A stretch of 64,000 bases of DNA, taken from positions 1 to 64,000 of the IMG/VR virus record IMGVR_UViG_3300025264_002028; one strand, given 5' to 3'. Positions 24,112 to 33,791 of this stretch are shown here, in pieces. Positions within the stretch are counted from its first letter, which is position 1; each line of letters opens with the position of its first letter. Under the pieces are notes generated by a model, which saw only the letters and a list, made by a program, of their open reading frames with translations, made no database searches and was not told the DNA's origin. The position numbers and the translations under genes are program-made. The DNA comes from a virus.

Positions 24112-24600
24112 TTATAATCCTTTAGTACTGTTCATTAGGTTTTTAACATTATTTTGACAAAATCCCTTATCTCCTCTCTCTATAAGCTCTATAATAATAC
24201 CCCCTAAATGATCTAAAGGTTTAGTAAATATTTGTCTCATATTATCATCGGGGCAATCAATGACATTTTCTGTGAGAAACTCTACTCCCTTTTCCTTCCA
24301 CTCCTTCACTTTATCTTCTATATGAAGAACTTGATAGGCCATATGATGAATGCCCCCTGTTCCTCCTCGCTCTTGTACCCATTTGTCTACAATAGAATCA
24401 GTTGTTCCATTGGATACAAAAATTTCAGGAGAAATATGACGTGCGCCAGCAGCTGGCTCTAGGACTAGGCATTCGGCCGTAGACTCATCATCAAATTTAA
24501 TTTCAAACTCTGTGACTGTTCTATAGTTCAGAGTTGCCTTCAGAAATTCTGCGGCCTTATGTCTGTCCGTAACTCTATATGCTATGTGATCTAATCTCAT
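24112..24600 (-). CDS. VOC-fold protein resembling the stand-alone C-terminal catalytic domain of HPPD
   Basis: LDHIA, GGIHHMAY, RQIFTKP and IELIER..GFCQNN give a His-His-Glu metal triad in 162 aa. Confidence 0.75.
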   Translation of the reverse strand: MRLDHIAYRVTDRHKAAEFLKATLNYRTVTEFEIKFDDESTAECLVLEPAAGARHISPEIFVSNGTTDSIVDKWVQERGGTGGIHHMAYQVLHIEDKVKEWKEKGVEFLTENVIDCPDDNMRQIFTKPLDHLGGIIIELIERGDKGFCQNNVKNLMNSTKGL

Positions 24601-24611
24601 TAAATGCTTTC

Positions 24612-24697
24612 AAAAAAAAACGGGTTTTATCGAGTTTGATCAGTACAGAATGGGGGACCCGAAACCATCTGCAAACTAAAGCCGCTGACCAAACCGG
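24612..24697 (-). ncRNA. Candidate structured cis-regulatory leader (riboswitch/attenuator-like) upstream of the amino-acid operon
   Basis: Nested stems 24634-24643/24685-24694 and 24644-24653/24665-24673. Their mismatches are G-U wobbles only on the - strand. Loop CGGGU is complementary to downstream ACCCG. U9 tract at 24612-24620. Confidence 0.5.
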
Positions 24698-25039
24698 CTA
24701 TTCCAAAGTCTTTTTCTCCTGATTCCATTTCATCCATCCATTATCGGGGAGCCAGTTTCCATCTATATCTTTACGTTTGGGAAATAGTCCACCGCCCTTT
24801 TTGTTTACCCCAAAGGCCAACTTAGCATGACACTTCTTGCACTTCAGCTCAAAGTACTCATTACCTTCATTTTCCCTTACAATATATCTTAGGTTATCCG
24901 ACCCACATTTGCCACATGTATTTTCAGAAAAAACCTCCTGAAATACAGATAAATCCTTGAAAACATCCTTAACGGTTTCAGCTTCAAATTCAACCGATAC
25001 GTTACCCGTGCTACATTTTACTCTCATAATCATCTCCAA
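24698..25039 (-). CDS. Hypothetical zinc-ribbon protein
   Basis: CGKC...CKKC; overlaps the upstream stop. Confidence 0.65.
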   Translation of the reverse strand: MEMIMRVKCSTGNVSVEFEAETVKDVFKDLSVFQEVFSENTCGKCGSDNLRYIVRENEGNEYFELKCKKCHAKLAFGVNKKGGGLFPKRKDIDGNWLPDNGWMKWNQEKKTLE

Positions 25040-25791
25040 TTTTTATCATAGCCTACAATATTGGCTGGAATCTTTTTTTGTTTATTTTGATACTCATTAA
25101 GAACCGCAAGCATTGTAGACGCGGTTTTCTTACTAACTTCCGTAATATCAGCGTATTGATTTTCCCCCATATTAATAAAACCCATAACATTAATTTCTAA
25201 CTGCTTACACTTGTTGTCAATAAAATTAGCTTGAGCAGAACTAATGGAATCATTCTCCTTCCACTCTCCATCAGTTGCCTTTTCTACTTTAATAGACTCC
25301 CTTACAATAGAGGCCACGTCTTTTTTAGCCAGCTCTTCAGCCGCCAAACATCTAACCTTTAAAGCTTTACGTAGGGCACGACCTTCCGCCCTAGTGCTTG
25401 CAGTGGCTACTGGATGGGCACAAAACAAATCGTCTGTGTTACCATGCCACACGTCAGCTACATCCGCAAATATTCTATGTTCTCCACTATTCCCCCAGTT
25501 AATGATAACCTCAAATACTACAGTTGCTCGTCCCGGACCATTGTTATCTTCAGCTGGAAAAACTTGAGAAGGTCGGCTACTTATAATATCTCCTAGTAGC
25601 TCTTCCGCCACACGGCGTAACCCAGCACAAATAGGATTTTTATCAATCAATTCATGTGGCTCAAACTTGGACATTACATAGTCGTTCCATTCCTTCGATC
25701 CATATCTTGGGCCATCTTCCGCTTTTTCCATAATAACCACATCTTGTTCAGTAATCTGTTCTGTTTCAAATAAATCTTGATCAATTGCCAT
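25030..25791 (-). CDS. Putative Rad52/Sak-like single-strand annealing protein
   Basis: ATASTRAEGRALRKAL...AAEE motif resembles Rad52-superfamily phage annealases. Confidence 0.5.
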   Translation of the reverse strand: MAIDQDLFETEQITEQDVVIMEKAEDGPRYGSKEWNDYVMSKFEPHELIDKNPICAGLRRVAEELLGDIISSRPSQVFPAEDNNGPGRATVVFEVIINWGNSGEHRIFADVADVWHGNTDDLFCAHPVATASTRAEGRALRKALKVRCLAAEELAKKDVASIVRESIKVEKATDGEWKENDSISSAQANFIDNKCKQLEINVMGFINMGENQYADITEVSKKTASTMLAVLNEYQNKQKKIPANIVGYDKNWR

Positions 25792-26567
25792 TAAGAAATC
25801 TCCAATTCAATAAGTCTTTCGTCTTGAGGCGGAAAACTAGCTTCTATTTTTTCAATTTCAGGATACACTAAATCCCATAGTCTCCTTTTCACGCTGTGCG
25901 ATATGTGTTTGCATAGATACTTCACCCTTATTATACAATAACCTTTGGAAATAAGCAACCCATTTTTAATAGAATCATACTTAATATAGTTTCTAAGGTG
26001 CTTCTCTCCAAACAAAGGAGTAAAATGTTGTGGTCCATCTATTTCAATCGCTATTCCCAAATCGGGAAGAAAAAGGTCTATCTCAAATTTTTCTCCTTCA
26101 ATCAAATGCTTCTTATGAATTATAGTACTGTATCCAGATTTTGTCAATTCAGAATATAAAAATTTTTCAGCCTTTGATCCTTCAATACTACTCTTTCTCA
26201 GGGCTTCCGCCGCTTTTTTACGCATCAAACGCTTCTCGCCGTCTCCTAATTTGTCCCATCGTTTTTTGGCTTCCTCAGAGAACTTCTTTCTTTCTTCTGT
26301 GGACATTTGTTTCCATCTTTTTTCTATCGTTTTGCTAATTTGTAGCTTTTGCTCTTCTGTTTTAGGCTTACCCTTTGTGGGGTGCGTGGCTCTTCCATAT
26401 TTTAATGCGCCCTTTTGCGCCTCTGATTTACTTCGTAACTTACACCCATTTTTCTTTAGGATTCTTTCTATTTTTTTAGGATAAGTGTTGAGATTTTTAG
26501 CTATCTCATATGTACTCTTATTATTGCTATATTCCTGTATCACATAACCTTCATCTATTTGTTGCAT
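25791..26567 (-). CDS. Free-standing homing endonuclease (HTH + NUMOD3 + Vsr/DUF559-like nuclease)
   Basis: N-terminal HTH (STYEIAKNL), NUMOD3-like KGKPKTEEQKLQISK, C-terminal EIDLF...IEIDGPQH. Confidence 0.72.
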   Translation of the reverse strand: MQQIDEGYVIQEYSNNKSTYEIAKNLNTYPKKIERILKKNGCKLRSKSEAQKGALKYGRATHPTKGKPKTEEQKLQISKTIEKRWKQMSTEERKKFSEEAKKRWDKLGDGEKRLMRKKAAEALRKSSIEGSKAEKFLYSELTKSGYSTIIHKKHLIEGEKFEIDLFLPDLGIAIEIDGPQHFTPLFGEKHLRNYIKYDSIKNGLLISKGYCIIRVKYLCKHISHSVKRRLWDLVYPEIEKIEASFPPQDERLIELEIS

Positions 26568-33003: not shown

Positions 33004-33791
33004 ACCGAAGTAACCTTTCTGTATTCTGTCTTATAGTCTGACAGTATAAAGTGGTATGTGCGTGAATCACCGTCAGTTGATCTTCTTCCAAAGTCAATTC
33101 CAATTATAGAATGTGTCCAATCAAACCAAGACTCACTAATGTCTGGCCTTGAGTCTCCTATTATATTATCCCATTGTGGATAACTTTCTTCTGGTATAAC
33201 CCTTTTAATTTCATGGGGAGTCTGTTGCCATTTTTTGTGAAAAAAAGGACCCGATATAGCACATTTAGCACCATCTTCTTTTAAAAGAGGGCTTTTCCAT
33301 GTTTGATCATATTCACATGATAATGATTCATAATAGGCTAAATTGGCTAATCTTAAACGTAATACGAAATCATCGTCTTCGCATCCTCCTCCATAAAATC
33401 TCTGATCAAACCATCCTATTTTTCTAAAGACTTCTTTAGTAAGAGCTAAAAAGGCTACATTCCATTGTCCCACTACTGCATAGCCCCTATGTAGAAGTTG
33501 TAGCATAAAAGTAATTTCTTCTGGATTTGGAATTACTCTGTCATTGACCAAAATAACAGTTTCAGTTGGAGAAGTTGCTACAGCTTCATTCATTAATTCT
33601 GAATATGAATCATATGCTTCTGGTCTTCTGTCAATTCTATTGTTCCAGTGTATATTAAATTCATTATTTAATGGCTCTAATTTTTGCATCTGATTTTCTA
33701 CAACCTTAGAATCAGATCCGGCGTGTAAGCAGATGGTGATATCTTTTTCTAAATATTTTGGAGAAGGATTATGTGGATTTCTAGAAAACAT
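33000..33791 (-). CDS. Glycosyltransferase, GT2-like
   Basis: KIGWFDQRFYGGGCEDDDFVLRL. Confidence 0.75.
   Translation of the reverse strand: MFSRNPHNPSPKYLEKDITICLHAGSDSKVVENQMQKLEPLNNEFNIHWNNRIDRRPEAYDSYSELMNEAVATSPTETVILVNDRVIPNPEEITFMLQLLHRGYAVVGQWNVAFLALTKEVFRKIGWFDQRFYGGGCEDDDFVLRLRLANLAYYESLSCEYDQTWKSPLLKEDGAKCAISGPFFHKKWQQTPHEIKRVIPEESYPQWDNIIGDSRPDISESWFDWTHSIIGIDFGRRSTDGDSRTYHFILSDYKTEYRKVTSV

Follow-up and report, generated by a model that had tools for sequence, protein, structure and literature searches.

A family of double-pseudoknot RNA modules at gene junctions of uncultured marine phages, with a possible function in transcription termination

The structured RNA element located at positions 24612-24699 on the minus strand of the 64,000-nt window analyzed here (the first 64 kb of a 103-kb virus record, denoted G000, which represents a genome that is approximately 67% complete) is, as judged by comparison of its copies, one unit of an undescribed family of RNA modules of ~85-90 nt present in a group of uncultured marine phages. 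The units of this family support four helices, namely P0, P1, P2, and a pairing between the apical loop and the 3' tail, that together make up two predicted interlocked H-type pseudoknots, P0/P1 and P2/loop-tail, with the strand order a-b-a'-c-d-c'-b'-d'. We are highly confident that the element is a conserved structured RNA module and that it is not a riboswitch dedicated to the amino-acid operon in front of which it lies. With regard to its function, we tentatively favor the possibility that the unit is a modular, leaky intrinsic terminator combined with an RNA-end cap, in which the pseudoknot would play the role of the terminator helix and which would have spread as a cassette.

The 97-nt gap that holds the element on the minus strand extends from the stop codon of a 113-aa ORF (24698-24700) to the ATG at 24600, and the operon downstream encodes a glyoxalase/VOC-like protein, an aldehyde dehydrogenase (ALDH), a DDAH-like hydrolase, a class-III aminotransferase, and a class-I aldolase. 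The fold that was described for this gap in the initial annotation is present (Table 1), and in a scripted check every listed pair turned out to be a standard pair. The outer stem joins 24685-24694 to 24634-24643, and all 10 bp are present in this copy; the outer two pairs, however, are not conserved in other units, which leaves an 8-bp core. Similarly, the one-sided internal loop of 11 nt is found at 24674-24684, but it is not a simple bulge because five of its bases (24680-24684) pair with 24695-24699 to form P0, a helix that had been overlooked. The inner stem of about 9 bp is formed by 24665-24673 and 24644-24653 with U24649 bulged, and the two pairs that had been noted as A-C on the plus strand are the wobbles G24689-U24639 and G24672-U24645 on the minus strand. 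The annotated spacing of the U9 tract is also exact, with the tract starting 13 nt past the stem base and stopping 11 nt short of the ATG, and the element is more GC-rich than its flanks, as reported (G+C fraction of 0.51 vs 0.37-0.40).

Table 1. Parts of the element in the window and of the compared DnaB junctions
Feature	Position	Strand	Remark
UAG stop codon of the upstream 113-aa ORF	24698..24700	-	P0 begins with its A and G
P0, 5' strand (AGCCG)	24695..24699	-	partner 24680-24684
P1, 5' strand, 8-bp core	24685..24692	-	two extra pairs in this copy extend it to the 10-bp outer stem
P0, 3' strand (CGGCU)	24680..24684	-	inside the 11-nt 'bulge' of the initial annotation
P0-P2 junction	24674..24679	-	2-6 nt long across units
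P2, 5' strand	24665..24673	-	97.5% of cells paired; both-side changes in 6 of 9 pairs
Apical loop, 11 nt	24654..24664	-	CGGGU at 24657-24661 is the pseudoknot 5' strand
P2, 3' strand	24644..24653	-	U24649 bulged; bulge at the same place in all units
P1, 3' strand	24636..24643	-	abuts P2 with zero unpaired bases between
Variable linker	24626..24635	-	ends in the conserved UAAAA, the last A of which (24625) opens the pseudoknot strand
Pseudoknot, 3' strand (ACCCG)	24621..24625	-	duplex energy with the loop -8.0 kcal/mol
U9 tract	24612..24620	-	begins at the base right after the last pseudoknot pair
Weak ribosome-binding stretch and ATG	24598..24611	-	glyoxalase/VOC-like first gene of the operon
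Membrane-protein/DnaB junction with unit	L003:3450-3670; L083:1335-1552		
Membrane-protein/DnaB junction without unit	L131:3845-3983; L133:2543-2681		

The folding energy is uninformative for this element: the minimum free energy of the minus strand is -23.7 kcal/mol (z = 0.12, with 102 of the 200 shuffled sequences folding equally well) and that of the plus strand is -18.6 kcal/mol (z = 0.30), and the significance of the fold comes solely from comparison among copies. In a nested energy model, there is little difference between the combinations P0+P2 (-14.3 kcal/mol) and P1+P2 (-14.7 kcal/mol). P0 and the 8-bp P1 appear to be sterically compatible given the 2-nt connecting loop; alternatively, the two helices may represent the two states of a switch.

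A second copy of the unit is present in the same genome outside the window (G000 66316-66412, of which 88 nt at 66321-66408 are 81% identical to the unit in the window); the stop codon of a DUF1501 gene falls within this copy, and a gene for a small secreted protein comes next. Pattern scans combined with an nhmmer profile added at least 17 units from contigs of related uncultured phages, namely L003 (= L005, L066), L004 (= L046), L036, L052, L055, L083, and L108, which brings the total to 19 distinct units, including the two G000 copies, that are closely related and come from a narrow group of phages. Contig L036 comes from a relative of the G000 phage, and the tag peptide of its tmRNA, AEPSLALAA, is the same as that of the G000 tmRNA. 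A candidate for a third G000 copy, at 33274-33420, lies inside a glycosyltransferase-like ORF and was dismissed as a chance match. A search of Rfam 15 with positions 24300-25000 of the window at E values up to 10 gave zero matches on the element, in agreement with the earlier failure to recognize a known riboswitch class in it, and the same database applied to the L036 units returned only the tmRNA and one chance-level match of 21.7 bits, with no guide-RNA-type or ribozyme family. The unit was not matched by blastn among the phage records of GenBank. Among 185,579 bacterial species genomes, a strict two-arm pattern retrieved nothing, and a looser pattern retrieved approximately the number of matches expected by chance, none of which was scored by model R1. 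The family is under-sampled by the metagenome scan.

To assess the fold by comparison, pairs were counted for a specified structure in a MAFFT alignment of 18 units (A2). P0 is paired in 100% of the cells and has changed on both sides in all five of its pairs, P1 has a solid 8-bp core outside which the two outermost pairs of the window copy are not kept, and P2 consists of 9 bp with a constant 1-nt bulge. For these three helices together, none of the 500 shuffles matched the observed covariation, which includes 17 pairs changed on both sides, and 89% of the cells are paired compared to 37-47% when the partners are slid. At several positions G-U alternates with A-U or G-C, which amounts to A-C on the opposite strand; because many of the G-U pairs exist on the sense strand only, the folded strand is the gene-sense RNA. 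The proposal that a structured RNA is formed on the coding strand, for which covariation among homologous units had been named as a check, is thus borne out: P0, P1, and P2 covary, and the versions of the pseudoknot are compensatory. Translation extending through the unit was also considered and rejected: some copies do have an open frame, but the substitutions compensate each other in the manner of RNA pairing.

Outside the helices, the only invariant positions among the 19 closely related units are those of the UAAAA run; the loops and junctions vary in length and sequence, the 6-8 nt ahead of the A run are fully variable, and the strongly conserved sequences are those of P1 and lower P2. 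This scarcity of invariant unpaired nucleotides makes it very improbable that the unit is a self-cleaving ribozyme that would cut polycistronic or tmRNA-containing transcripts at unit borders, although a double-pseudoknot fold would suit such a function and small ribozymes, like these units, are commonly found in phages, in tandem, and beside tmRNA. Moreover, no known ribozyme family matches the unit, and its strand order is unlike those of the HDV-like, twister, and pistol folds.

Because the loops differ in length, the MAFFT columns do not resolve the helix between the loop and the tail, which was therefore scored by script. The complementarity between CGGGU in the loop (24657-24661) and ACCCG immediately before the U9 tract (24621-24625), which was already noticed in the initial annotation, is real: complementary versions of the two strands covary across units. 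Five distinct Watson-Crick complementary versions of 5-9 bp were found at the same tail position after the invariant A-run, namely the common version CGGGU(U)/(A)ACCCG and four others of 7, 7, 9, and 8 Watson-Crick pairs, whereas the loop of one class combined with the tail of another yields a mean complementarity of only 3.5 bp (maximum 5). Within an array, adjacent units always differ in their pseudoknot sequences, as would be expected if each unit pairs internally and pairing with its neighbors is avoided. A sixth class (L036C and L108b) has an imperfect pseudoknot, and in most units the pseudoknot helix is only 5-6 bp long; both observations count against the terminator interpretation that is developed below.

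All units run in the direction of the genes and start at a stop codon or within a few bases after it. Most units open with UAG or a variant thereof, and the UAG is the actual stop codon in the window copy as well as in L003, L055, and L083; in the copies that follow DUF1501 genes, the reading frame extends three codons into the unit. G000 encodes three DUF1501 proteins outside the window (66398-67666, 67680-68930, and 90529-91779), and only the first of these genes is followed by a unit, which includes its last three codons and stop. The genes located after the units are unrelated and comprise the VOC/ALDH operon, small secreted proteins, DnaB, a TnpB-like protein, and a 121-aa protein; a unit is also placed before an Hsp20 region, and different downstream genes follow the unit after one DUF1501 gene. 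An operon orthologous to that in the window was identified in L167 (84% identity for the ALDH and 44% for the VOC protein), where the upstream gene is unrelated to that of G000 and where no unit was detected with model R1 with the filters off. The 183-nt gap before the L167 operon (L167:3274-3456) contains four small hairpins of another kind (GGGAU ... AUCCC) and may itself be another repeated intergenic element.

The initial annotation had suggested that the leader gates the operon as a riboswitch sensing an amino acid or a related metabolite, and the position of the unit directly before a lysine/arginine-type operon is what such a riboswitch would call for. Since, however, units precede unrelated genes and are absent from the orthologous operon, the leader provides no evidence for metabolite regulation of the amino-acid operon. 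The L167 operon has a different leader, the second G000 copy precedes a small secreted protein, and other copies lie before DnaB and further unrelated genes, so that a riboswitch dedicated to this operon is scarcely credible. Another possibility is that the unit senses a global signal as a riboswitch, the ligand being, for example, an ion or a nucleotide second messenger that would stabilize the pseudoknot and thereby cause termination. The complex fold, in which a pseudoknot runs up to the U tract, is compatible with this, and the dimers could then be tandem aptamers with one expression platform; tandem aptamers that share one terminator are known in other riboswitch classes. Nevertheless, the lack of a common function among the downstream genes, the variability of the loops and junctions, the dispensability of the unit at orthologous sites, and the lack of an Rfam match render this explanation decidedly improbable.

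Alignment of the junctions between the gene for a 128-134-aa membrane protein and DnaB (A3) revealed a block of ~87-90 nt, spanning from the UAG to the U tract, in L003, L055, and L083 that is missing in L131-L133, with alignable flanks. In L131-L138, the DnaB proteins of which are 84-93% identical, the membrane-protein gene and DnaB abut, and the unit model detected no unit at any of the 36 viral loci that encode the L003-type DnaB, the sites being empty. At this junction, the unit occurs on two different upstream backgrounds. Conversely, the G000 DnaB, which is only 45% identical to the L003 DnaB, is not preceded by a unit, whereas the units of G000 and L003 are ~80-90% alike despite this distance between the DnaB proteins. 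The unit therefore behaves as expected of a mobile cassette, that is, as a repeated intergenic element located at junctions that differ between close relatives.

The same polymorphism, along with the single orientation of all units, could also point to a transposon part, either an IS200/IS605-type end (or a gene-less derivative thereof) or a scaffold RNA of TnpB. In L036, a 418-aa TnpB/Cas12f-like gene has units on both sides, and the TAG-type tetranucleotide before a small hairpin, which heads most units, recalls the ends of REP and IS200/605 elements. However, the TnpB gene is present in only one of about eight contigs (L036), and the 103 kb of G000 contain no TnpB, Y1 transposase, or reverse transcriptase. 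Furthermore, four covarying helices, G-U pairs on the sense strand, and pseudoknots of 5-9 bp fit an RNA rather than transposase-bound DNA hairpins, and there was no match to a guide-RNA-type family; hence we consider this origin improbable. No relatives of the L036 TnpB were found in viral contigs.

The most complex arrangement of units is that of L036 (4283-6461), where the order is tmRNA, units A-B, C-D, and E, the TnpB/Cas12f-like gene, and units F-G; the five units that follow the tmRNA thus form an array of three blocks (A-B, C-D, and E), each of which ends in Us. The tmRNA gene of G000 (94305-94563) is directly followed by a gene, with no array. In L052 (1520-1760, minus strand) and L108 (1100-1400), a dimer of units lies between two sigma-70-like sites (TGGACT, 16-17 nt, TATAAT), the sequence of which may represent the promoter consensus of the phage. 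The start predicted for the first putative promoter, which is within a coding region, is the first base of P0, and the second putative promoter is located downstream of the U8 tract of the dimer; an SSB gene follows this region. Inspection by eye revealed no conserved promoter of the sigma-70 or Bacteroidota type inside the unit. Two kinds of array RNA were considered and rejected, namely a type III toxin-antitoxin RNA (ToxI-like), given that the units have diverged and that no ToxN/AbiQ-type neighbor was found with Pfam, PHROGs, and PADLOC, and a reverse-transcriptase template or UG27 array, given that the ORFs of G000 and L036 include no RVT_1 match and that the units are ~85-90 nt long.

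These arrangements raise the question of whether the units are stand-alone or protein-binding non-coding RNAs, with single units acting as operators and arrays acting as sponges for a phage or host protein. The dimers placed between a promoter-like site and a U8 terminator, the five-unit array beside the tmRNA gene, and the strong sequence conservation of P1 and lower P2 are compatible with this idea. We nonetheless find it rather unlikely because, in the approximately eight contigs, we found no protein family that accompanies the units, and because the putative promoter upstream of the dimers lies within a coding region.

The terminator interpretation that we favor starts from the U tract, which, in all 14 of the 14 single or array-final units, follows the last pseudoknot pair without an intervening base. 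Five units lack a U tract, and each of these has another unit within 0-3 nt downstream. The base of the helix beside the Us is G/C-rich in the final units and more A/U-rich in three of the four sequence types of internal units. If the pseudoknot is taken as the helix, the U tract lies within the 0-2 nt after a G+C-rich helix that characterize intrinsic terminators. A local hairpin with a short loop set against the U tract is absent, as the nested stem stops 13 nt before the Us, and a consensus terminator scan did not call the element. In this sense, the initial remark that the element is unlike a plain terminator and possibly conditional holds up, since the junction of the pseudoknot and the U tract looks non-canonical. 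The zero-gap junction between helix and Us, the loss of the Us where another unit follows, and the position of the units after stop codons and after a stable-RNA gene are the observations that suggest termination; against it stand, in addition to the short and imperfect pseudoknots mentioned above, the U tracts of just five Us in three units. Alternatively, Us located ahead of a ribosome-binding site could have a role in translation. To our knowledge, no intrinsic terminator of the pseudoknot type has been demonstrated. Given that this phage also uses ordinary hairpin-plus-U terminators, the host polymerase presumably reads such signals.

Under the terminator interpretation, the loop-tail helix, with its G+C-rich base and the immediately following U tract, would be the terminator helix, and the scaffold of P0, P1, and P2 would hold the remote 5' strand in the loop, poised for pairing. 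In addition, the knot would cap the released 3' end against nucleases. Units are found directly before genes without a promoter of their own, including the essential DnaB, which excludes strong termination at such sites, and in the window partial termination is required at 24612-24699 because the downstream genes have no room for their own promoter. Within an operon such as this one, termination would thus be partial, and how strongly the downstream genes are expressed relative to the upstream ones would be set by the unit. One hypothesis for how this could be tuned is that the ribosome halted at the UAG covers P0 and the 5' strand of P1, melts both helices, and lowers termination; such gating by ribosomes would reconcile leakiness in messages with a tight stop after tmRNA. 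The cassette gained, lost, or exchanged between phages would then comprise the stop codon, the knot, and the U tract. A perfect sigma-70 consensus (both hexamers with a 17-nt spacer) is present on the minus strand at 26119-26147, inside an HNH homing-endonuclease-like ORF (25791-26567), and this putative promoter could drive two small ORFs, the unit, and the operon.

The main rival to the terminator interpretation is a knot resistant to nucleases or helicases, a bacterial-virus counterpart of the exoribonuclease-resistant RNAs (xrRNAs) of flaviviruses. Such a knot would halt an enzyme that proceeds 5' to 3' (RNase J, or RNase E when it scans from the 5' end), so that the message downstream is protected or stable small RNAs accumulate; the U tract would then be incidental. 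The 5' end of a flavivirus xrRNA base-pairs with the inter-helix junction, and its apical loop latches to the 3' tail; these structures occur in tandem copies and stop the bacterial RNase J1 (PMC8374639). The unit has both of these pseudoknots, from the 5' end to the inter-helix junction and from the apical loop to the 3' tail, and likewise occurs in tandem; units lie just 5' of ribosome-binding sites, the transcription start predicted in L052 and L108 coincides with the first base of P0, and poor conservation of unpaired positions is what would be expected of a mechanical fold. Nevertheless, the unit has no three-way junction, no third helix appears in the alignment, and this model does not explain why the U tract is so strictly joined to the fold and is lost from internal units alone, while the units flanked by a promoter and a terminator as dimers have nothing downstream to protect. 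The unit furthermore comes from a DNA phage rather than an RNA virus, ends in a U tract, and is not related to xrRNAs in sequence; the likeness is a resemblance and not membership, and a nuclease block is in our estimation doubtful.

With respect to other known systems, the units share with intrinsic terminators the G+C-rich helix followed without a gap by a U tract and the location after stop codons and a stable-RNA gene, but the helix is a pseudoknot of the loop with a strand 35-60 nt away that is held by two further helices, and the location inside operons implies that it must be leaky. The T4-type PeSL elements and bacterial REP/BIME elements are similarly multi-copy, intergenic, oriented with the genes, co-transcribed, and located at junctions of differing gene content; those, however, are simple stem-loops, with a promoter in the case of PeSL, whereas the unit is a covarying double pseudoknot without a recognizable promoter. 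The preQ1-I, fluoride, and ZTP riboswitches are also compact pseudoknots that adjoin a U tract upstream of genes, but the units lack a common gene function, have variable loops, and abut the Us with the pseudoknot itself rather than with a separate hairpin. The nearest described array of structured units is that of the phage UG27 reverse transcriptases, in which structurally conserved but sequence-diverse units of 135-167 nt, with a main hairpin, an asymmetric internal loop, and a pseudoknot, lie beside the reverse transcriptase and two accessory genes and are gained and lost, with extra units in neighboring gaps (bioRxiv 10.64898/2026.09.22.753630). The present units are shorter, at ~85-90 nt, end in U tracts, and were found without a reverse transcriptase.

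It is conceivable, although doubtful, that the units represent a new functional class, that is, a mobile, self-contained double-pseudoknot module of DNA phages that acts mechanically, either as the first intrinsic terminator of the pseudoknot type, tuned by the ribosome on the first helix, or as an xrRNA analogue that blocks host RNases and produces stable decoy RNAs from the arrays. If the pseudoknot is a terminator helix, then a long-range tertiary pairing, and not a local hairpin, can stop bacterial RNA polymerase, which would define a class missed by terminator finders and offer a natural route to attenuation dependent on translation or on factors. If it is a nuclease block, the principle of xrRNAs would extend to bacteria and their viruses. 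On either reading, the unit would be a compact natural RNA part, consisting of a stop codon, a knot, and a U tract, that phages move between operons, and such a part would help in understanding the modular evolution of phages and would be useful as an insulator.

Two other repeated elements were encountered in the searches. The Caldilineaceae MAG CHL15 contains ~20 copies of a multi-copy element (L169, L173, L174, and ~17 more loci), the conserved end of which consists of a 13-mer plus TAAAAC in common with the phage unit, followed by GTAG and a perfect small hairpin, and resembles an IS200/IS605 or REP end; this element was not scored by model R1 and was rejected as a member of the family, the shared motif being treated as chance. 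In the pattern scan of metagenomes, most of the matches listed (L006-L122, e.g., L006:1161-1203) belong to an unrelated high-copy repeat of ~105 nt found in five metagenome samples, with a motif span of 42-43 nt, which has in common with the unit, by chance, a ten-base loop motif and a twelve-base tail motif and ends in a hairpin-plus-U terminator of its own.
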